Part shown: positions 882-58,403 of the stretch, one piece after another | Position numbering within the stretch: the first letter of the stretch is position 1 | Layout: each line of letters begins with the position of its first letter | Assembly (NCBI GenBank): GCA_963827515.1 | Contig: CAWHBF010000021.1 | Coordinates: 290,067-354,066 of the forward strand | DNA length: 64,000 bases | Reading direction: 5' to 3' | Source of the DNA: an uncultured Acidobacteriota bacterium | GTDB lineage: Bacteria > Acidobacteriota > Vicinamibacteria > Vicinamibacterales > UBA2999 | The notes under the pieces: generated by a model | The model's input: the letters and a program-made list of their open reading frames with translations, nothing else | Told to the model about the DNA's origin: nothing | Databases searched by the model: none | Translations under genes and position numbers: made by a program

Positions 882-903
882 ATGTGGTCATGATGTGAGT
901 TGC

Positions 904-945
904 CTCTTGGCTTTGGTCTCTGGTCTTAGGCTCTTGGTCTGGTCT
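904..945. repeat. heptad-periodic low-complexity element, single arm (ctcttgg ctttggt ctctggt cttaggc tcttggt ctggtct)
   Basis: About six tandem 7-nt units. On the minus strand they read AGACCAGACCAAGAGCCTAAGACCAGAGACCAAAGCCAAGAG, ending ~20 nt upstream of the acnA start. Same unit type as the elements at 36.6, 38.7 and 39.4 kb. Confidence 0.7.
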
Positions 946-1095
946 ATCGGCATCTAGGCTCTCGCATCTGGACGGCGAACTGCCATGCGCCCGAGAGACC
1001 AGCGCCCAAGGCCTGAAGACCACTTTTGATCATACCCCGCGCGAAAGCATGTCGAGAAGTACGGAGACGACGCCAGCAAGGTTTCGGCGCCAATC

Positions 1096-2232
1096 TCAGG
1101 ATGGTCGCGTGCGTCTCGCCGCCACCTCGAGAACCGCGGCGGCTGCCCGTCCACTGGCCCCGGACGAGCCCAGCCGATCTCTGACACCTCGCAGCGCCTC
1201 TCGCATCACGTCATAGCGCGTCAGATCGGTCAAGAGTCCGATGGCTTCCGCAGCCACCCGCTCAGGCGTGAACTCCTCCTGAATCAGCTCGGGCACGACG
1301 CGGCGTCCAGCGATGAGGTTCGGCATCGCATAGGTATCGACATTCAGGAATGGCTTCCCGAGCCGGTAGGACAGTGCCGACACGCGATACACCACGACCA
1401 TTGGCCGCTCGTGCAAGGCGGCTTGCACCGTCGCGGTTCCCGACGCGGTGATCACCACGTCCGATGCCGCGAGCACGTCGTCCGCGTGCCCATCGACGAT
1501 CGTGACTCCGCTCGTCGATAAAGCGCTGAACATCTGGTCCGACAGGCCAGGCGCGCGTGCGACGACGAACTGCACCCCAGGCACCCGGGAGCGAATGAGC
1601 GGCAGCGCCGAGGCCAGGACGGGAGCGATGCGTGCTACTTCGCTCCGACGACTGCCCGGTAGCAGCGCCACGGTCGGCACCTCTGGCGACAGACCGTGCG
1701 CTCGTAGAAACTCGCCGCGCGGTTGCGACGCTCGAGCCAAGTCCACGAGCGGGTGCCCGACGAACTGGACCGGCACTCCGGCTCGCTCATAGAACGCCGA
1801 TTCGAACGGAAAAATCACCAGCACCTTGGTGACGAACCGCTTCATCGTCTCCATGCGACGTGGCCGCCAGGCCCATAGCTGCGGGCTGACGTAGTAGACA
1901 ACCGGCACGCCGAGGCGCCACATCGCCGCAAGGAGATGGAAGTTGAAGCCGGCGAAGTCGATGGCCACGAAGACATCCGGACGTTCGGCCTTGGCTGCCG
2001 CAACGAGACGTCGATACATGGCGTACGCCTGGGGAAGGATGCGCACGATCTCGGTGAGCCCAGCCACCGACAGTCCGGCGAAGTTCCCGACCAGCCTGGC
2101 ACCGGCCGCTTCCATCCGCTCACCACCGAACCCGAAGATTGTGGTGGAAGGTGCACGAGCGCGGAGCTCAGCGACGAGAGCGGCGGCGTAGAGATCGCCG
2201 GACGGCTCGCCGCAGGAGATCATGACGTTCAC
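1096..2232 (-). CDS. lpxB: lipid-A-disaccharide synthase
   Basis: 378-aa ORF starting MNVMISCGEPSGDLYAAALVAELR, with full-length GT19 LpxB-like sequence. Start is GTG at 2232 or ATG at 2223. Confidence 0.9.
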   Translation of the reverse strand: MNVMISCGEPSGDLYAAALVAELRARAPSTTIFGFGGERMEAAGARLVGNFAGLSVAGLTEIVRILPQAYAMYRRLVAAAKAERPDVFVAIDFAGFNFHLLAAMWRLGVPVVYYVSPQLWAWRPRRMETMKRFVTKVLVIFPFESAFYERAGVPVQFVGHPLVDLARASQPRGEFLRAHGLSPEVPTVALLPGSRRSEVARIAPVLASALPLIRSRVPGVQFVVARAPGLSDQMFSALSTSGVTIVDGHADDVLAASDVVITASGTATVQAALHERPMVVVYRVSALSYRLGKPFLNVDTYAMPNLIAGRRVVPELIQEEFTPERVAAEAIGLLTDLTRYDVMREALRGVRDRLGSSGASGRAAAAVLEVAARRTRPS

Positions 2233-2239
2233 GCTTCTG

Positions 2240-2400
2240 AGTTCTCTGTTCTCGGTTCGTGTTCAGGTTCGGTGCTGGGTTCGCGGTTCTCGGTTCGGGG
2301 TTCAGGTTCGAGAACAGAGGTTCGGGGTTCGGGAACAGAGAACCGTGAACTTGAACCGTGAACCGAACCTGAACACGAACCGAGAAGACAGAACCAAGAA
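2240..2400. repeat. ~150-nt palindromic element built from NNGGTTC / GAACCNN heptads
   Basis: Left arm 2246-2273 (ctgttctcggttcgtgttcaggttcggt) versus right arm 2362-2391 (accgaacctgaacacgaaccgagaagacag). A 24-nt stretch is a perfect reverse complement; the interior is made of imperfectly complementary ggttc/gaacc heptads. It fills the M16-lpxB intergenic gap. Confidence 0.8.
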
Positions 2401-2419
2401 GTGTGAACGACGAGCTGCT

Positions 2420-7121: not shown

Positions 7122-7820
7122 TCACGCGTGACGTGAGGCCACTCGCGCGAAGAAGATCGTCAGATGCTGGAGTCGCAGCCGATCCGCAATGTCCTGGATG
7201 CGCGCCTCGCGCGCTGCTGTTTCCAGCGACGCGAGGTCTCGAAGCTCGGTGAGCGGCGGGCAGGGCCGGCCCGACCACGTGATGCGGTGAAGGCCTTGGG
7301 ACGCGCCCCGCATCGACAGCCAGTGTCCAAAGACGCGGAAGGTGAAGTAGTACGCCAGTATATTGGGTCCCGGTATGAGCGCGATGGGTCCGGACACAAT
7401 CAGCCCGACGGCGTCGATCGCCAGCCACAGCCGGTGACGCTCGTAGTCGCGTCGGAGCGTGCGACGGACGAGCGTCATCACCTCCTCGAACGTCATGTCG
7501 TGCGGATGCGCTGCCTCGGCGGACGTGAGACGCCGGAGGTTCCAGAGCAGGCGCTGCTCGGCGATGCGCTGCGCCACCCAGCCGAGCAAGCGGTCCTGCT
7601 TGCGTCCCAGCCAGGACTTGGATGCGGGCGACGCGTCGCGCTGTCCATCCTCGGCAGCCCGAATCATCTCGACGAACCGGCGCCGGAAACGACCGAACAG
7701 ACCGCTCGTGGGCTCTCCGTCCACCTCGGCCGGCGGATCGACCGACGGCTCACAATACAGCTCGTACTGGTCCTGGCCGATCGGAATTACGTACACGTCC
7801 ATCGGCACTGACGATAGCAT
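7122..7820 (-). CDS. conserved hypothetical membrane protein
   Basis: 232-aa ORF with plausible codon usage and one or two hydrophobic segments ([31 protein letters not shown]). The start could be ATG 7802. Confidence 0.5.
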
Positions 7821-25152: not shown

Positions 25153-26580
25153 CCTCGCTGCTCGATCTGCCTTTCGACGAGCCGGAACGACCGGCGCCTG
25201 TCGTCCCCGACGCTCCGCCGCGACGACGGATCCTCACGGTCTCGGAGCTGACTGCAGATGTCCGGACGCTTCTCGAAGAACGATTCATCGAGGTCTGGGT
25301 CGAGGGCGAACTTTCGAACAGCCGGGTGTGGAACACCGGGCACATGTACTTCACCCTGAAGGACGCCGGCGCGCAGATCAAGGGCGTCATGTTTCGATCG
25401 GCGCTCCGCGCACTTCGATTTGCACCGCAGGACGGCCTTCGCGTCGTGGCACGCGGACGCGTCAGCGTCTACGACCCCAAGGGGGAGTATCAGCTCGTCT
25501 GCGAGCACCTCGAACCCGAGGGCCTCGGCGCTTTGCAGGTCGCCTTCGATCAGCTCAAGCAGAGACTTTCGGCGGAAGGCCTCTTCGATCCGGCCCGAAA
25601 GCGGGCACTCCCCGTACTCCCCAGGAAGATCGGCGTCGTCACGTCCCTCGATGGAGCGGCCATCCGCGACATCATTCATGTGTTGCGCCGCCGCTATCCC
25701 AACGCGCACATCGTCATTCGTCCAACGCGCGTCCAGGGAGAAGGTGCGGCGCCCGAGATTGCCGCCGCGATTTCCGCAATCGGGAGGGTCCCCGCGGTTG
25801 ATGTCGTGATCATCGCGCGCGGCGGTGGGTCGATCGAAGATCTCTGGGCGTTCAACGAGGAGATCGTCGCGCGGGTGATCGCACGCTGTCCGGTGCCGAC
25901 GATTTCCGCCGTGGGCCACGAGACCGACGTCACGATTGCTGACTTCGTCGCCGATCTTCGAGCGCCCACGCCGTCGGCGGCCGCCGAAATCGTCGTCGCC
26001 AGGAAGGACGACTTCGCAGCCCGCATCGACCGGCTGTCGCACCGTGTCCATTCGACCATGCAGGCGCGTGTGCACAGGTGCGAGTCGCGGTTGCGGGCGC
26101 TCGAGGCAAGGCCAGGCTTCGCTGGCTTCCGTGGCCGGCTGGCCATGCGCGGCCGGCATGTCGCCGACGTCACGCACGAGATCCGCCGCGCGATGCGCCT
26201 CCGCATGACCGCCGCCGAGCGGACTGCCCAGTCGCTGCAGCGAACGCTCGAGACCTTCGATCTGCGCAGGCGGCTCGGACGGGTTCGCGCGCGTCTGGTC
26301 GCGGCCGATGGTCGGTTGACAGCCGCCAGTGCGACGCAGCCGTCATCGTGCCGACCGGCAGTTACGCGGAGCAGCCGCACGGCTGGAAGCGCTCAGCCCT
26401 CTCGCCGTGTTGGGCCGGGGCTATGCGGTCTGCTGGAACGCCGACCGCACCGCGGTCATCCGCGAGGCAAGTGCGGTGGCTTCGGGTGAGCACGTCCGCG
26501 TCACCCTGGCACAGGGCGAACTAGAATGTGCGGTGACGGGCCGCAGAGACACGGCGACGGGACTTCCCAGGTCCGGCTAA
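25149..26580 (+). CDS. xseA: exodeoxyribonuclease VII large subunit, frameshifted near 26328
   Basis: N-terminal OB fold [44 protein letters not shown]. The conserved C-terminus [52 protein letters not shown] is encoded in the +1 frame (ORF 26329-26580). Confidence 0.85.
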
Positions 26581-26654
26581 AGCCGGACACTACGTACGCA
26601 CTGAGCCATTGACGGGGCGTGCGAGACGATCGTAGTGTCCGGCTTCAGCCGGAC
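26571..26654. repeat. composite REP-like palindrome (two 24-nt arms, each containing its own small hairpin)
   Basis: gtccggctaaagccggacactacg ... cgtagtgtccggcttcagccggac. The left arm supplies the last codons and the TAA stop of the frame-corrected xseA. Confidence 0.8.
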
Positions 26655-26760
26655 CCTTGTGACAGACACACTGAGACGATGACCGGAAAAAGACTGCTCT
26701 GTGCTTCTCTTCATCTGTGGCCCGTGAGAGTGCGCACGCGGCCTGCAAGGATGGATACGC

Positions 26761-36557: not shown

Positions 36558-36663
36558 ATCTTGGTCTTTGGTCTCTAGTCTTTGGTCTCTGGATTCTGGT
36601 CTTTGGACCAACGACCAGGACCGAAGATCAAGAACTAGAGACCAGAGACCAAAGACCAGAGAC
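36558..36663 (+). repeat. heptad-periodic hairpin: (TYTGGTC)~7, spacer, (GACCARA)~6
   Basis: tttggtc tctagtc tttggtc tctggat tctggtc tttggac / gaccgaa gatcaag aactaga gaccaga gaccaaa gaccaga. The arms are complementary, with G.U pairs only in the + sense. Confidence 0.8.
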
Positions 36664-36680
36664 TGTCTTCCCGTCTTCCA

Positions 36681-38642
36681 ATGCCTGACGTCACCATCAC
36701 ACTACCGGACGGATCTCACCGGACGCTGCCGGTCGGCTCGGCCGTGCGCGATGTGGCCGCGGGTATTTCTCCGCGTCTGGCCAAGGCGGCACTGGCCGGC
36801 GTGGTCAACGATCGTCTGGTCGATCTGACGTTTCCCCTCGACTCTGACTCAACCGTACGCATCGTCACACCGGAAAGCCCCGAAGCGCTGGCGCTCTGCC
36901 GGCACAGCACGGCGCATCTACTGGCCGCCGCGGTGACGAATCTTTTTCCCGACGTGCAGTGCGGGATCGGCCCCGCGACCGACGAGGGCTTCTTCTACGA
37001 CTTCGTCGTCCCGCGACCGTTCGTACCCGAAGACATCGAGGCCATCGAGGGGAAGATGCGCGAACTCGCGCGGCAGGACCTCCCGTACGAGCGCCAGATG
37101 TGGCCACGCGAAGAGGCGCTGCGATTTTTCGGCGCCCGCCGGGAGCCATTGAAGGTTCAGCTGATCGACGAGAAAACCGAAGGCCAGCGTGAGGTGTCCT
37201 GCTACACCATCAAGGACCGCGCCACGTTCGTGGACTTCTGCACCGGTCCGCACGTGCCGTCAACGGGGAGGCTCAAGGCCTTCAAGCTCCTGAGCACCTC
37301 GAACGCGTATTGGAAAGGCGACGCGAAGAACCAGCCAATGCAGCGGGTCTACGGCACGGCGTTCATCGCGGAGAAGGAGCTGCAGGAGTACCTGCAACGT
37401 CTCGAGGAAGCCAAGAAGCGGGACCATCGCAAGATCGGGCGCGATCAGAAGCTGTTCATGTTCCATCCCTGGGCGCCCGGCGCCACGTTCTGGCTGCCGA
37501 AGGGAACGGTGCTGTACAACACGCTCGCCAACTACATGCGCGAGGTGCTCGTGCCGGCGGGGTACGAAGAGGTCAAGGCGCCGATCGTGCTGAACAAGGC
37601 GCTGTGGGAAACGTCGGGACACTGGCAGCACTACCGCGAGAACATGTTCCTCGTCGACAGCGAGGGCGAGCAACTCGGGCTCAAGGCGATGAACTGTCCG
37701 GGGCACTTCCTGATGTACGCGAACGAGATGCGCAGCTACCGGGACCTGCCGATCCGATTTCACGAGCAGACGCCGCTGCACCGCAACGAGGCGTCAGGCG
37801 TCCTGTCGGGGCTCACTCGCGTGCGTCAGTTCAGCCAGGACGACGCTCATTGCTTCGTGATGGAGTCGCAGATCGCCGAGGAGGTCGAACGGCTCCTCCG
37901 GCTCGTGCAACGCGTCTACGGCGACTTCGGCCTGACTCCCGAAATGAAGCTCTCCACCCGGCCGCCGGAGTTCCTCGGCACCATCGAAACCTGGGACCTG
38001 GCCGAGGCCGGACTGCGGCAGGCGCTCGAGGCGGCGGGGGTCCGTTACACGGTGAATGCGGGCGACGGGGCCTTCTACGGACCGAAAATAGATTTCGACG
38101 TCATCGACGCGATTGGACGCAAGCATCAGTGCGCGACGATTCAACTCGACTACATGCAGGCAGAGCGGTTCAACCTTACGTATGTCGGAGCCGATAACGC
38201 TCAACACCGCCCGGTCATCATTCATCGCGCGATTTTCGGGAGTTTTGAGCGGTTCATTGCCCTGCTCATCGAGCACTTCGCCGGGGCCTGGCCTCTCTGG
38301 CTGGCCCCCGTGCAGGTCGCCGTTTTGCCGATTGCAGACCGTCACCTGGCCTATACACGGACCGTTCGCGACCAGTTGGCGGCGTCGGGGATGCGGGTCG
38401 AACTCGATGAGCGTTACGAGAAGATTGGCTATAAGATCCGAGAGGCTCAACTTCAGAAGGTTCCCTACATGCTCGTCGTGGGAGACCGGGAGGCCGCCGA
38501 CGGGACGGTATCGGTCCGAAGTCGCTTCGGGGGAGACCTTGGCGCGAGGCCGGTGCAAGAGTTCGTGACCGCAGCGCTCGAGGAGATTCGCTCGAGAGCA
38601 CAGGGCGCAACGGTTGCGCCCGCCGAGAAGCAATCGGCGTAG
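36681..38642 (+). CDS. thrS: threonine--tRNA ligase
   Basis: 653 aa. TGS domain MPDVTITLPDGS..., editing-domain motif HSTAHLLA, class II core and anticodon-binding domain; full-length ThrRS. Confidence 0.95.
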   Translation: MPDVTITLPDGSHRTLPVGSAVRDVAAGISPRLAKAALAGVVNDRLVDLTFPLDSDSTVRIVTPESPEALALCRHSTAHLLAAAVTNLFPDVQCGIGPATDEGFFYDFVVPRPFVPEDIEAIEGKMRELARQDLPYERQMWPREEALRFFGARREPLKVQLIDEKTEGQREVSCYTIKDRATFVDFCTGPHVPSTGRLKAFKLLSTSNAYWKGDAKNQPMQRVYGTAFIAEKELQEYLQRLEEAKKRDHRKIGRDQKLFMFHPWAPGATFWLPKGTVLYNTLANYMREVLVPAGYEEVKAPIVLNKALWETSGHWQHYRENMFLVDSEGEQLGLKAMNCPGHFLMYANEMRSYRDLPIRFHEQTPLHRNEASGVLSGLTRVRQFSQDDAHCFVMESQIAEEVERLLRLVQRVYGDFGLTPEMKLSTRPPEFLGTIETWDLAEAGLRQALEAAGVRYTVNAGDGAFYGPKIDFDVIDAIGRKHQCATIQLDYMQAERFNLTYVGADNAQHRPVIIHRAIFGSFERFIALLIEHFAGAWPLWLAPVQVAVLPIADRHLAYTRTVRDQLAASGMRVELDERYEKIGYKIREAQLQKVPYMLVVGDREAADGTVSVRSRFGGDLGARPVQEFVTAALEEIRSRAQGATVAPAEKQSA

Positions 38643-38651
38643 GAATACTCG

Positions 38652-38759
38652 CTAGTCTTTGGTCTTTAGGCTTTGGTCTTTGGTCTTTAGCTTTGGTCTT
38701 TGGACCCGAGACTGGGACGAAAGACTAGAGACCAGAGACCAGAGACCAGCCAAGACCAG
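38652..38759 (+). repeat. heptad-periodic hairpin: (TTTGGTC)~7, loop, (AGAGACC)~4
   Basis: ctagtc tttggtc tttaggc tttggtc tttggtc tttagc tttggtc tttggac ccgagactgggacg aaagact agagacc agagacc agagacc agccaag accag. The right arm ends at the infC GGAGG. Confidence 0.8.
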
Positions 38760-38770
38760 CGGAGGATGAT

Positions 38771-39370
38771 ATCGCTTTCGACCGTTCGCCCCGACGTGAC
38801 GACCGTGTTCGCACCAATGAACGCATCCGAGTTCGAGAGATCCGGGTCATTGACGAAACCGGACAACAGCTCGGCATCATGCCTCCGCCACAAGCGCTGG
38901 TTATCGCAAAGCAGAAAGGCCTCGACCTCGTCGAGATCTCTCCGACCGCGGTGCCACCGGTCTGTCGGATCATGGACTTCGGCCAGTACCAGTACCAGGA
39001 GCAGAAGCGTGCTCGGGAGGCCAAGAAGCACCAGCGGGTGATCGAGGTCAAGGAGATCAAGTTCCGGCCGAAGGTCGATGTGCATGACTACGACTTCAAG
39101 AAGAAGCACATCGAGCGCTTTCTGGCTGAGGGCGACAAGGTCAAGGCGACGATCTTCTTCCGTGGTCGAGAGATGGCGCACCCCGAGATCGGGCGGCGCA
39201 TTCTCGAGCGACTGATTGCGGAACTTGCCGACGTGGCCATCGCGGAGACGATGCCCCGGCAGGAAGGCAACCAGATGCACGTGATCCTCAGCCAGAAGGC
39301 TGGGCGCAAGGTTGCGAAGCCGCGGCCGGCGGACGCACCGAAAGAAGCGGTCCCGGCGCCGGAAGAGTAG
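38771..39370 (+). CDS. infC: translation initiation factor IF-3, probable AUC start codon
   Basis: The frame is open from 38729. It encodes conserved [60 protein letters not shown] upstream of the first ATG (38879). The only start-like codon is ATC 38771, 6 nt after GGAGG. Confidence 0.8.
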
Positions 39371-39423
39371 ATGCCCTGAGGCGAGGCAAGTGCAAAGTTC
39401 AAAGTACCAGAAGTGTTAAGTGC

Positions 39424-39490
39424 CTAGAGCCCAGAGCCCAGAGCCCAACTAAAGACTAGAGACCAAAGACTAACAAGAGACTAGAGAGAG
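39424..39490 (+). repeat. heptad-periodic A/C/G-rich leader, single arm (ccagagc x3, gagacca, aagacta ...)
   Basis: ctagagc ccagagc ccagagc ccaacta aagacta gagacca aagacta acaagag actagag agag runs up to the rpmI ATG. No complementary GGTCT arm nearby. Confidence 0.7.
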
Positions 39491-44085: not shown

Positions 44086-44091
44086 CTTCAA

Positions 44092-44278
44092 GCTCCTGCT
44101 TTGCTCGTGATGGTTTTCGGAGGCTCGTCTGAGCCAACGTACAACCCAAGTGAGCCGCGAGGTCGCGTGTTGTGCATGCCTCTGTTGCGAGGAAGCCTGA
44201 AGCGAGACCGATAACAGCGGTTCCACCTGCTTTCGCAGGTTCACTCGACCTCCCCACACGGCAAAGCGGGGCGATTTG
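44092..44278 (+). ncRNA. ssrS: 6S RNA candidate (~187 nt)
   Basis: Non-coding gap downstream of zapA, which is the classical ssrS position. Closing stem CCTGCTTTGC (44095-) pairs with GCAAAGCGGG (44261-), and GGAGG pairs with CCTCC further in. The apical part GCATGCCTCTGTTGCGAGGAAGCCTGAAGC resembles E. coli GCAUGCUCGGUCCGUCCGAGAAGCCUUAAAAC. Dedicated promoter upstream. Confidence 0.6.
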
Positions 44279-56874: not shown

Positions 56875-57229
56875 GGGGGCGACTTTGGCTTCGACGGGGG
56901 TAGAGAATCGCGGGATGCATGCCGAGCTCCATTGACTCGTAAAACCGATGGAACATCCGTTAACTGCGGATTCTAACTACGCTCTCGCAGCCTAATAAGC
57001 TGTGAGCGTCTGCCCTGACCTCGCCTGGTGGTTGGGGGTCAGACGCCATTAAACAGGCTGGCTTTCGGATGGCGGCTCGGCGTCCGAGGGTGAGAAATAC
57101 CGGGTCTGGTGTCCGGCGGTTTTTGGCCGCTTCCTCACGCCGGGCATGAGAAATCAGAAGCGGACACGCATGTAGAGTCCTACGAGGACATACTTTCGGA
57201 CGCGGGTTCGACTCCCGCCGCCTCCACCA
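56875..57229 (+). ncRNA. ssrA: tmRNA (transfer-messenger RNA), tag peptide ADSNYALAA
   Basis: 5' GGGGGCGACTTTGGCTTCGACGGGGG pairs with 3' ...GGACGCGGGTTCGACTCCCGCCGCCTCCACCA (acceptor stem with G3:U70, T-arm GCGGG-TTCGACT-CCCGC, CCA). Tag ORF is GCG GAT TCT AAC TAC GCT CTC GCA GCC TAA TAA at 56966-56998. Confidence 0.95.
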
Positions 57230-57358
57230 TCTCTAAGCTATTAGCGTACAAAGGCTTAGTCGATTCACACGCCTCCTAGTTTGGTTCAAATCAGGTACAG
57301 CGCGCCGACACGGCGTGCGCGGCCTCGATCTAAGTGACTGAGGCCACGGCCTTTGTTG

Positions 57359-57393
57359 TTTCGGACGCCTTACTAGTCTCCCGCCACCTCCAC
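57359..57393 (+). repeat. degenerate direct copy of the tmRNA 3' end (att-like scar)
   Basis: tttcggacgc-cttactagt-ctcccgcc-a-cctccac compared with tmRNA 57194-57227 tttcggacgc-gggttcga-ctcccgcc-g-cctccac. 25 identical positions in three blocks. Confidence 0.55.
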
Positions 57394-57443
57394 AAGCCTG
57401 ACGTCCTTCCTCGCTGAGCGTTGCCCAGCGGTATCATTCACCG

Positions 57444-57731
57444 ATGTCGCTCGAGGCGCTGCGGACACACCGACGAACGATTCTCGAACTGGCGGAGCGT
57501 CACGGTGCACGCAACGTGCGTGTCTTTGGCTCAACGGTTCGTGGAGACGCGAGACCCGATAGCGATATCGACATCCTCGTCGAGGTCGAGCGTGGCCGGA
57601 CGCTCCTCGACGTGATCGCCTTCGAGCAGGACCTCGAGGAGCTCCTCGGACGCTCGGTGGAGGTGTTGACGGATGCTGGACTCAGTCCCTACCTCCAGCA
57701 GCGCATTCTCATAGAAGCCGCAGCGTTGTGA
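57444..57731 (+). CDS. nucleotidyltransferase-domain protein (MNT-type antitoxin)
   Basis: RVFGSTVRGDARPDSDIDILVE carries the GSxxRG...DxD minimal NTase motif. 95 aa. Confidence 0.85.
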   Translation: MSLEALRTHRRTILELAERHGARNVRVFGSTVRGDARPDSDIDILVEVERGRTLLDVIAFEQDLEELLGRSVEVLTDAGLSPYLQQRILIEAAAL

Positions 57732-57871
57732 AGGACGACCTGGTCTATCTGCAGCACATCCGGGATGCACTAGAACGACTCGGCAAGACGGCCCCGTGGC
57801 GGGAATGTAACGGGTTGGGTATGGACGTCCCGAGTGCGACTGTTACGGAGAGCGTCCAACCAGAGCGATGA
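57728..57871 (+). pseudogene. truncated HEPN/DUF86 (HepT-like) toxin remnant, 47 codons
   Basis: A GTGA overlap with the MNT stop leads into VKDDLVYLQHIRDALERLGKTA, which matches the DUF86 N-terminus. The sequence then diverges and stops, so the C-terminal Rx4-6H motif is absent. Confidence 0.6.
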
Positions 57872-57896
57872 CAGCCTTCAAGTGCGGATCGGGTCG

Positions 57897-58403
57897 TTAT
57901 CGCTGTTTGAGGATCGCGCGTACGTCCTTGAGCAGGACGAACAGGTGATACGCGTCAGTGGGAGCCGGCGTGAAACCAAACCGTTCGTAGAACGCCCGCG
58001 CGTCGTCGTCCTTCGCGTGCACCGCCATTGCCCGGATGCCGGCGATGTCGGCGGCTTGCAGCGTCCGCAGCATGGCGTCTTTGAGCAGTCCGGACCCGAG
58101 TCCTTTGCCCTGCCAATTGGTGGCCACGGCCAGACGCGCGAGAAGCATCAGTGGAATCGGATGCTTGGCCAGTCCCTTTGCCAGACGCTGGGGCGCGTCG
58201 TCGTACTCGACCTGCGCCACGACGAGCGTGTAGAACCCGACGACTTGGTCGTCCACTACGGCTACATACGTCTGCGAGGCCTCTGCTTGCTGATTCTGAA
58301 ACGCGTAGCGCGCCAGGAAACGGTTGAGCGCCTCCTGCCCGCAATCAAAGGAATCGACGGGGTGCTCGCGGCGCAGCTTTTCAATCCGCGGGCCGTTGTT
58401 CAC
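57897..58403 (-). CDS. GNAT-family acetyltransferase toxin (TacT/KacT-like)
   Basis: ...IEKLRREHPVDSFDCGQEALNRFLARYA...LARLAVATNWQGKGLGSGLLKDA...FYERFGF. GTG 58403 overlaps the antitoxin stop (GTGA). Confidence 0.85.
   Translation of the reverse strand: MNNGPRIEKLRREHPVDSFDCGQEALNRFLARYAFQNQQAEASQTYVAVVDDQVVGFYTLVVAQVEYDDAPQRLAKGLAKHPIPLMLLARLAVATNWQGKGLGSGLLKDAMLRTLQAADIAGIRAMAVHAKDDDARAFYERFGFTPAPTDAYHLFVLLKDVRAILKQR

Follow-up and report, generated by a model that had tools for sequence, protein, structure and literature searches.

An inverted pair of heptanucleotide repeat arrays, probably tolerated, between thrS and infC in an uncultured Acidobacteriota bacterium

The spacer between the genes for threonyl-tRNA synthetase (thrS) and translation initiation factor 3 (infC; IF3) in an uncultured bacterium of the Vicinamibacterales is occupied by an inverted pair of heptanucleotide tandem-repeat arrays, a simple-sequence-repeat (SSR) palindrome that is probably tolerated between the stop codon of the first gene and the Shine-Dalgarno (SD) sequence of the second. 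It lies in a 64,000-nucleotide stretch (contig CAWHBF010000021.1 of assembly GCA_963827515.1, positions 290,067 to 354,066, forward strand), the whole of which was analysed and is called the window. The element is one of hundreds of fast-changing inverted heptad arrays in the gene spacers of Vicinamibacterales (soil Acidobacteria), and it is neither a canonical terminator nor a conserved IF3 regulator. Repeats of its kind are known, but the lineage and the unit are new. Most likely it is a processing or stability site of modest, tunable effect, or a near-neutral passenger, and this is held as probable rather than firm.

The hairpin is genuine, and the sequence and coordinates given by the sequence-only reading, an earlier annotation of the window, match. 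The distance from the thrS stop to the 5' arm is 9 nt (GAATACTCG) and not the 10 nt given there. The components of the junction are the following.

36681..38642, + strand: thrS (threonyl-tRNA synthetase) coding sequence, from the open reading frame list, with Pfam TGS, tRNA_SAD, tRNA-synt_2b and HGTP_anticodon; stop codon TAG at 38640-38642.
38652..38705, + strand: 5' arm of eight TTTGGTC-type heptads, two of them 6-nt variants, from the sequence and Tandem Repeats Finder (TRF), paired in the minimum free energy (MFE) fold.
38706..38719, + strand: apical loop CCGAGACTGGGACG, 14 nt, containing a 4-bp mini-stem (sequence, MFE fold).
38720..38759, + strand: 3' arm of about 5.5 AGAGACC-type heptads that pair with the 5' arm, one U.G to each unit (sequence, MFE fold, TRF).
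38761..38765, + strand: infC SD, GGAGG, separated by one C (1 nt) from the end of the 3' arm.
38771..39370, + strand: infC (IF3) coding sequence with a non-canonical AUC start (translation; Pfam IF3_N and IF3_C).

The 5' arm reads CTAGTC TTTGGTC TTTAGGC TTTGGTC TTTGGTC TTTAGC TTTGGTC TTTGGAC and the 3' arm AAAGACT AGAGACC AGAGACC AGAGACC AGCCAAG ACCAG; the former is about 1.5 units longer, and the stem therefore carries bulges. TRF reports two arrays of period 7, at 38655-38703 (7.1 copies, score 70) and at 38722-38749 (4 copies, score 49). The units stand head to tail at a non-coding location, between the thrS stop (38642) and the infC start (38771), as in other intergenic heptanucleotide tandem repeats of the long SSR class. 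The end of the 3' arm 1 nt before the GGAGG that serves the non-canonical start, described by the sequence-only reading, is confirmed; the AUC is in frame 5 nt past GGAGG, and the base of the stem (3' arm end, 38759) is 12 nt upstream of it. The predicted RNA forms an imperfect stem of about 40 bp. The MFE of the + strand RNA is -62.5 kcal/mol against -38.1 +/- 3.7 for 200 dinucleotide shuffles (z -6.6; 0 of 200 as good), that of the - strand RNA is -51.5 kcal/mol, and a fold with DNA parameters gives -27.9 (z -5.9).

The orthologous junctions show how little of this structure is retained in relatives. Loci were retrieved by threonyl-tRNA synthetase (ThrRS) similarity, 80 from genomes and 80 from metagenomes, the labels of the genome loci being nearly all Vicinamibacterales, Vicinamibacteria or Acidobacteriota; 153 loci with both genes entered the comparison of the thrS-infC junction. 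The spacer measures 8-227 nt, with 58 junctions of at most 20 nt, 57 of 21-59 nt and 38 of at least 60 nt. The minimal junction consists of the stop codon, GGAGG, 4-5 nt and AUC or AUA, for example TAG-GGAGGACGAT-ATC. An SD-like motif precedes infC in 152 of the 153 junctions, and the start codon is ATC in 125 orthologues, ATA in 24 and ATT in 2; the conserved features are thus the non-canonical start and the SD, not the hairpin. The non-AUG start of infC holds throughout the clade, with AUC rather than AUU as the norm, which fits start-codon-based autoregulation of IF3. Such autoregulation is known from E. coli.

The hairpin itself is confined to a small subclade and is missing from most of the 153 junctions. 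At 94% ThrRS identity (L081) there is a homologous hairpin of 143 nt (-75.3 kcal/mol). At 90% (L082) both flanks are kept (CGCTAG ... AGCCCAGACCAGCGGAGG) around a spacer collapsed to 44 nt with a 6-bp palindrome, and at 84-85% (L083, L088) a 10-nt spacer holds just GGAGGACGAT between stop and AUC. The hairpin, of which degenerate homologues also exist, is therefore old within this subclade: some members have it expanded, in others it is decaying, and still others have lost it. A consensus fold of six homologues reaches only -8.8 kcal/mol with a covariation term of +0.23, and neither the presence across the clade nor the covariation expected of a conserved cis-regulatory RNA structure was found. 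With at most 20 nt in 58 of the 153 junctions, and with near relatives that lack the hairpin or hold a collapsed one, it is unlikely that the element has a conserved part in translating IF3 or in terminating thrS. The sequence-only reading had named a lack of conservation in relatives as what would undo its functional proposals, and this is largely what the 153 junctions display. Other genomes carry unrelated units at the very same junction (GGGCTTT/AAAGCCC, CGTCTCC/GGAGACG, CGGTCTT/GGAGACC, ACTACGA, CATTCAG, CTTCGAA and ACCAAAT), some as hairpins and some as single-arm arrays. One of them (L040, 5939-6066) has a 128-nt thrS-infC hairpin built from an 8-nt unit, ATTGACGA; hence, the architecture is not strictly bound to 7 nt.

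Variation on the scale of heptads is seen between close relatives. Between the window and L081, thrS (88.6% nucleotide identity) and infC (95%) align without gaps, and the spacer is 79% identical with 17 gap columns; in the MAFFT alignment the 5' arm has a gap of 7 nt and the 3' arm one of 8 nt, and the apex is the most variable part. Likewise, in two strain pairs with 99.9% thrS nucleotide identity (L013/L099 and L003/L084) the heptad-bearing rpmI-rplT spacers differ only by one exact 7-nt unit. The sequence-only reading had proposed to compare arm lengths for slippage in whole heptads, and these gaps do show length differences on that scale, at the element and elsewhere in the class. All non-repeat spacers in near-identical strain pairs are identical or differ by a single substitution. 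Whole hairpins are also gained or lost; for example, a 103-nt infC-rpmI heptad hairpin in L028 (6594-6696) corresponds to 8 nt in L029 (3031-3038), the two thrS genes being 97.9% identical. Such strain-pair differences are typical of simple sequence repeats prone to slippage and of palindromes prone to deletion; elements of the class gain and lose whole 7-nt units, and entire hairpins are deleted. Change by whole units between close relatives is also what characterizes intergenic heptanucleotide SSRs. A further difference between the L028 and L029 loci lies in the rpmI-rplT spacer of L029, where a 9-nt unit (CTGGGTTGC) makes up an array of 58 nt.

The element belongs to a class that extends over the clade. 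A census of arrays with at least three copies in the window and the 160 loci (1.2 Mb), with block-shuffled sequence as control, counted 315 arrays of period 7 against 24, 52 and 37 of periods 6, 8 and 9, and 3 of period 7 in the shuffled sequence. In the first 81 sequences, period 7 accounted for 184 of about 276 arrays; after period 7, periods 8 and 9 are the commonest. The 323 non-overlapping heptad arrays of the unit and pairing census comprise 138 canonical units, whose GC content averages 51% where that of the genome is 65%. Inverted pairs number 79 (158 arrays, about half) versus 3 pairs of same-orientation neighbours, a count that is valid only for arrays separated by a gap, as TRF merges contiguous direct arrays. 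Units recur within a locus in 13.5% and between loci in 5.4% of cases (2.5 times), and the arrays are found in several gene-orientation contexts.

Two hairpin types recur in the sample: CAATGC[AC]/GCATTGA heptads in the rplT-pheS spacer (~7240-7500) of L003, L013, L018, L020, L084, L105, L111 and others, and AATGCAA/TTGCATT heptads in the rpmI-rplT spacer of L020, L056, L098, L105, L111 and L147. These units are the commonest in the sample and return at corresponding junctions in many species, which marks some hairpins of the class as long-lived. Neither type occurs in the window, where rplT overlaps pheS by 8 nt and the rpmI-rplT spacer (71 nt, 93% identity to that of L081) has no repeats.

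Several known systems resemble the element in part. Among the long SSRs of many prokaryotes, those with heptanucleotide units are the most abundant class (Mrazek et al., 2007, through the summaries in PMC4679880 and PMC4692102), and Acidobacteriota are not among the lineages named in these summaries (PMC4679880; PMC4692102). Xanthomonas has 70-75 convergent inverted GGGAATC pairs, with lengths differing between species (Rehm et al., 2015; PMC4692102). The pairs of X. campestris and X. axonopodis are likewise intergenic tandem heptamers in a GC-rich (~65%) genome, arranged as close opposite-strand arrays with stem-loop or cruciform potential, and there too related genomes differ in repeat length but mostly agree in type, single or inverted pair. 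The thrS-infC element shares the opposite-strand arrays of one unit at a short distance. Xanthomonas, however, uses essentially one G-tract unit with G-quadruplex potential, whereas the units here are GGTCTTT/AGAGACC, without a run of three G as in GGGNATC, and at least 138 in the clade; moreover, about half of all arrays are paired here, and the window copy is inside an operon, between stop codon and SD. Neither so many unit types nor so high a paired fraction appears to have been described before, and among the papers searched none combined 'Acidobacteria' with 'heptanucleotide'.

In Haemophilus influenzae, RNase III cuts the long 5'-untranslated-region hairpin that (AUCUUUC)n forms in hmw1A, and expression is affected (Rapun-Araiz et al., 2025; PMC12721329); both RNase III and transcription are reported to be required for change of the SSR (PMC12721329). 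The (ATCTTTC)n hairpins of hmw1A and hmw2A also have a pyrimidine-rich heptamer left arm and a purine-rich right arm, lie as long imperfect hairpins upstream of a start and vary in copy number by whole heptads; a long imperfect double-stranded stem (>20 bp) of heptamer SSR upstream of a start is equally predicted at the thrS-infC junction. Of the models for the action of such an RNA, the hmw hairpin has the best experimental support. Its right arm is, unlike here, a non-repetitive G-rich stretch rather than an inverted heptad array, and it serves a phase-variation contingency locus of a pathogen adhesin; cleavage by RNase III and the effect on expression, demonstrated for hmw, are extended to the thrS-infC hairpin by analogy.

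The TAACTGA repeats of Beggiatoaceae comprise 169 direct sets and one indirect set (MacGregor, 2015; PMC4679880), and in Beggiatoaceae and cyanobacteria TAACTGA and other heptamers adjoin start codons (PMC4679880). As here, they stand directly upstream of starts and are missing from the same spacer in close relatives, and a role in translation has been suggested for them; in contrast, they consist of a single unit, nearly all direct, with no hairpin architecture. The long SSRs of 5-11 nt and the short tandemly repeated repetitive (STRR) heptamers of cyanobacteria, the latter reportedly described by Mazel and colleagues in 1990, share the intergenic excess of 7-nt units, the sporadic phylogenetic distribution and the proposed origin by polymerase slippage. 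Unlike the arrays here, they are mostly described as direct arrays of few genome-specific units. The repetitive extragenic palindromes (REPs) and BIMEs of enterobacteria can protect the mRNA upstream of them from 3' exonucleases; they are dispensable, and strains differ in them. They resemble the element as extragenic palindromes inside operons, but REPs have a fixed palindromic sequence of 20-40 nt, are spread by RAYT transposases and do not consist of tandem heptads.

The probable history and effect of the element could be pictured as follows. The element sits exactly in a junction that in many relatives holds only stop, SD and AUC or AUA; it varies by heptads and appears dispensable for infC expression in relatives. 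The 3' arm ends at the ribosome-binding site because the insertion went into a junction that ancestrally held only stop and SD. As stop and SD abut in relatives, thrS and infC would be co-transcribed; the stem of about 40 bp is predicted to form in the thrS-infC mRNA, with its base rejoining the stop codon and the SD, and for this reason the insertion of a self-folding hairpin is plausibly tolerated here. Replication slippage may lengthen and shorten each arm, and complementarity of the arms may be held at the level of the unit consensus, through templated switching between them or because selection favours pairing. At the molecular level, the stem would most probably act as a substrate of RNase III, as a barrier to 3' exonucleases or as both. 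A stem of such length is a canonical RNase III substrate. The fates of the thrS and infC parts of the mRNA might thereby be separated, with a strength tunable by the number of heptads.

Several observations weigh against so simple an account. Slippage and template switching are read from patterns of variation among sequences. A degenerate homologue with the loop region GGTGACCGNGAC in common persists at 82-84% ThrRS identity (L001, L002, L086 and L087), and the structure is therefore not ephemeral. Compared with L081, the window has 88-94% identity in the outer portions of both arms, while identity at four-fold degenerate sites is 66% for the whole of thrS, 69-76% for the final 600 nt of that gene and 85% for infC; the outer-arm identity hints at a constraint on the stem or at hairpin-templated correction. 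The sense RNA is also the stabler one in the window copy and its homologues (-62.5 versus -51.5, -75.3 versus -62.2 and -65.0 versus -60.9 kcal/mol). In a loose set of 76 heptad-rich spacers, taken as whole spacers with some loci redundant, the stabler strand is sense in 43 and antisense in 23 (p = 0.0085), an excess with which selection at the RNA level is conceivable.

The sense-versus-antisense results are nevertheless mixed overall and are not accepted as evidence of RNA-level selection. Strand tests were kept to the + oriented thrS-infC-rpmI-rplT operon because gene calling based on GC content at third codon positions reached just 73% of the sequence. In a strict, de-duplicated set of 31 inverted-pair operon hairpins there is no significant sense bias (18 versus 11, p = 0.33), and the G.U totals of this set (76 versus 53) differ through a few elements. 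The sequence-only reading had argued for a sense-strand RNA structure from the wobble pairs, and its observation holds: the core (38655-38749) folds as sense RNA with 40 pairs including 7 G.U (-54.1 kcal/mol), and as antisense RNA with 30 pairs and 0 G.U (-33.7 kcal/mol). The argument survives insofar as the sense RNA of this copy is stabler and is weakened insofar as it counts the wobbles, because the seven G.U pairs derive from one fixed T/C difference between the arm units (5' unit GGTCTTT versus GGTCTCT, the complement of the 3' unit AGAGACC) that was copied by unit amplification. They are not seven independent events, and a C-to-T bias of the non-template strand would yield a strand preference of identical sign. 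A unit-permutation test for in-register mirroring of variant units was negative (27 of 65 beat the permuted arrays, median z 0.07), with low power in such short arrays. Single-arm arrays show a base skew of G over C (40 versus 24, p = 0.001) and no A/T asymmetry (34 versus 29), many of the 'single' arrays in this test being halves of imperfect pairs.

Further heptad elements within the window bear on the alternatives. GGTCT-type units occur at four places within the 64 kb, and one array with a different unit is also present.

898..1025, - strand: looser GGTCT-type heptad inverted pair between two minus-strand genes (TRF, gene calls).
2226..2409, - strand: heptad hairpin with a different unit (GGTTCNN/GAACCNN) between two minus-strand genes (TRF, gene calls).
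36561..36663, + strand: sister hairpin of TTGGTCT/AGAGACC units between tRNA-Val and thrS (TRF, inverted-repeat search).
39422..39487, + strand: single-arm purine-rich heptads (AGAGCCC, then AGAGACT-type) in the infC-rpmI spacer, without a complementary arm (TRF).

The sister hairpin is, as the sequence-only reading had it, of the same kind as the thrS-infC element, with GGTCT-type units; its RNA has an MFE of -63.6 in the sense and -56.0 in the antisense. The 36.6-kb and 38.7-kb hairpins are 71% identical against 67 +/- 2% under a unit-shuffled null, and their loops and lengths differ; their likeness is no greater than the sharing of units predicts. The inverted repeat at 2226-2409 (I1) has 57-nt arms that are 86% complementary. 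The array at 39422-39487 has nearly no predicted structure, with a sense MFE of only -3.3 kcal/mol.

The heptads may also mean more than a tolerated palindrome does. Vicinamibacterales may carry a lineage-wide, undescribed form of evolvable operon punctuation, in which inverted heptad arrays, whatever their unit sequence, would spread because the transcribed RNA hairpin itself favours expansion and contraction of the repeat, and the heptad count would tune processing and the relative expression of neighbouring genes such as thrS and infC. This is unlikely, and it would explain the excess of inverted pairs (79 versus 3), the complementarity without in-register mirroring and the conservation of outer stems while apices churn.

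A dedicated cis-regulator of IF3 synthesis is improbable. Here the SD-abutting hairpin would modulate access of the 30S subunit or translational coupling from thrS, adding a layer to the start-codon-based autoregulation of IF3. The single nucleotide between the 3' arm and GGAGG, the weak extension of the MFE fold into the SD, the favoured sense strand in the window copy and its homologues, and the well-conserved outer arms relative to L081 all speak for it. However, in partition-function folding the SD is predicted to be mostly paired both with the hairpin and with the hairpin deleted in silico, its accessibility being about equal, and it is unpaired in the centroid structure. The distance from array to SD elsewhere ranges from 1 to about 12 nt, and several arrays are single-arm and unstructured. 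The 58 junctions too short for any structure, together with close relatives in which the hairpin is absent (10 nt at 84-85% identity) or collapsed (44 nt at 90%), make it unlikely as well that the modulation of IF3 translation suggested by the sequence-only reading is a conserved one. Rfam reported no family at the gathering score, including the known thrS, infC and L20 leader RNAs, and a search at E<=1 gave only weak, sub-threshold eukaryotic miRNA-precursor models.

That the element terminates or attenuates thrS transcription, a long hairpin without a U-tract reducing read-through into infC, is quite improbable. A very stable hairpin does stand directly past the thrS stop. GC-rich bacteria are reported to use hairpins with poor U-tracts. 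Yet the element has neither the short GC-rich stem and 3-8 nt loop nor the U-tract of a Rho-independent terminator: the tail is CGGAGGAUGAUAUC (with CGGAGGATGATATC following the stem in the comparison with that class), the stem is much longer than terminator stems, and a scan for promoters and terminators found no terminator-like or promoter-like site at the element. Moreover, stop and SD abut or overlap in relatives (TAGGAGG...), which implies obligatory co-transcription, no promoter-like site lies downstream, and the same class of hairpin occurs between rpmI and rplT and directly upstream of thrS. The thrS terminator proposed by the sequence-only reading is hence not upheld.

A role at the DNA level, through cruciform extrusion, a protein-binding array or signalling to the nucleoid or replication, with the RNA hairpin incidental, is very doubtful. 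It would suit the missing class-wide strand bias (18 versus 11), the significant DNA fold and the occurrence of arrays in several gene-orientation contexts, but the 138 units argue against a sequence-specific binding protein, positions show no regularity, and rapid gain and loss argues against a needed DNA signal.

It is hardly credible that a small mobile or dispersed element, like a miniature inverted-repeat transposable element (MITE), REP or REPIN, was inserted between thrS and infC, for although GGTCT-type units stand at four places, recur more within than between loci (13.5% versus 5.4%), and whole hairpins come and go between 98%-identical strains, the two GGTCT hairpins are as alike as their control, no target-site duplication is present, L082 shows an internal collapse that leaves two outer 3' units and a short palindrome rather than a clean empty site, the 138 unit types have no fixed full-length consensus, and nothing within the 64 kb of this genome places the element among MITEs, REPs or REPINs. 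Readings as a CRISPR array, retron, T-box or riboswitch were dropped, there being no spacers, no reverse transcriptase nearby and no model match.

With the tolerated repeat palindrome preferred, the tempting story of a conserved control hairpin for IF3 or thrS gives way to that of a hypervariable palindrome in a tightly coupled junction, and the clade-wide pattern is more interesting than the single thrS-infC locus. These abundant and poorly studied soil Acidobacteria are unusually rich in inverted heptanucleotide arrays of many unit types, which offer a natural series of differing stem lengths at the same operon junctions. Such a series could test the effect of long intercistronic hairpins on mRNA processing and coupling, and the generality of the RNA-dependent repeat dynamics reported in Haemophilus. 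Heptad arrays can also break or mislead short-read assemblies of metagenome-assembled genomes and gene callers.

The surroundings of the other heptad elements provided further observations. The sister hairpin (36561-36663) begins 3 nt past tRNA-Val and finishes 18 nt ahead of the thrS ATG. Its spacer is only 53% alignable with that of L090 (2795-3000), though L090 thrS is 94% identical in nucleotides and 98% in protein; L090 has in addition a perfect 17-bp hairpin without heptads (TTCGACTCGGCAGCTTC...GAAGCTGCCGAGTCGAA) directly after the tRNA. The counterpart region upstream of thrS in L081 is at 55-168. The thrS gene of the window has no recognisable SD at 36664-36683, where a C/U-rich stretch (TGTCTTCCCGTCTTCCAATG) that is conserved in L081 and L090 precedes the ATG. 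The sense-strand units at 39422-39487 are GCCCAGA, three times, followed by ACTAGAG and ACTAAAG types, and L081 has a different purine-rich array (GAGACAG-type) there.

Other features of the window concern unrelated repeats and structural RNAs. A second, unrelated repeat family of 20 nt consists of GC-rich palindromes GCGCACGCT-NNA-GCGTGCGC, with 8 matches where chance would give 0.43; the variants compensate for each other (GCGCAGGCT..AGCCTGCGC and GCGCACACT..AGTGTGCGC), and its members are REP-like or U-less terminator-like hairpins.

10461, 13810, 15821, 46134, 54397, 54497, 55945 and 56738 (window positions): 20-nt palindrome family.
44090-44276: 6S RNA gene (Rfam, 69 bits).
56875-57229: tmRNA gene (Rfam, 197 bits).

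An inverted repeat of 25 nt at 26570-26655 is made up of two small hairpins (GGTCCGGCTAAAGCCGGAC / GTCCGGCTTCAGCCGGACC), 96% complementary and 36 nt apart, an arrangement that resembles a REPIN-like doublet. ARAGORN additionally reports a 'permuted tmRNA' at 57137-57901; this call overlaps the true tmRNA gene and is probably spurious. Among the retrieved loci, three with Bifidobacteriaceae or Bifidobacterium labels (L010, L045 and L065) and one labelled Acidimicrobiia (L031) encode ThrRS 75-81% identical to that of Vicinamibacterales in the same operon layout, and their bins are probably mislabelled.

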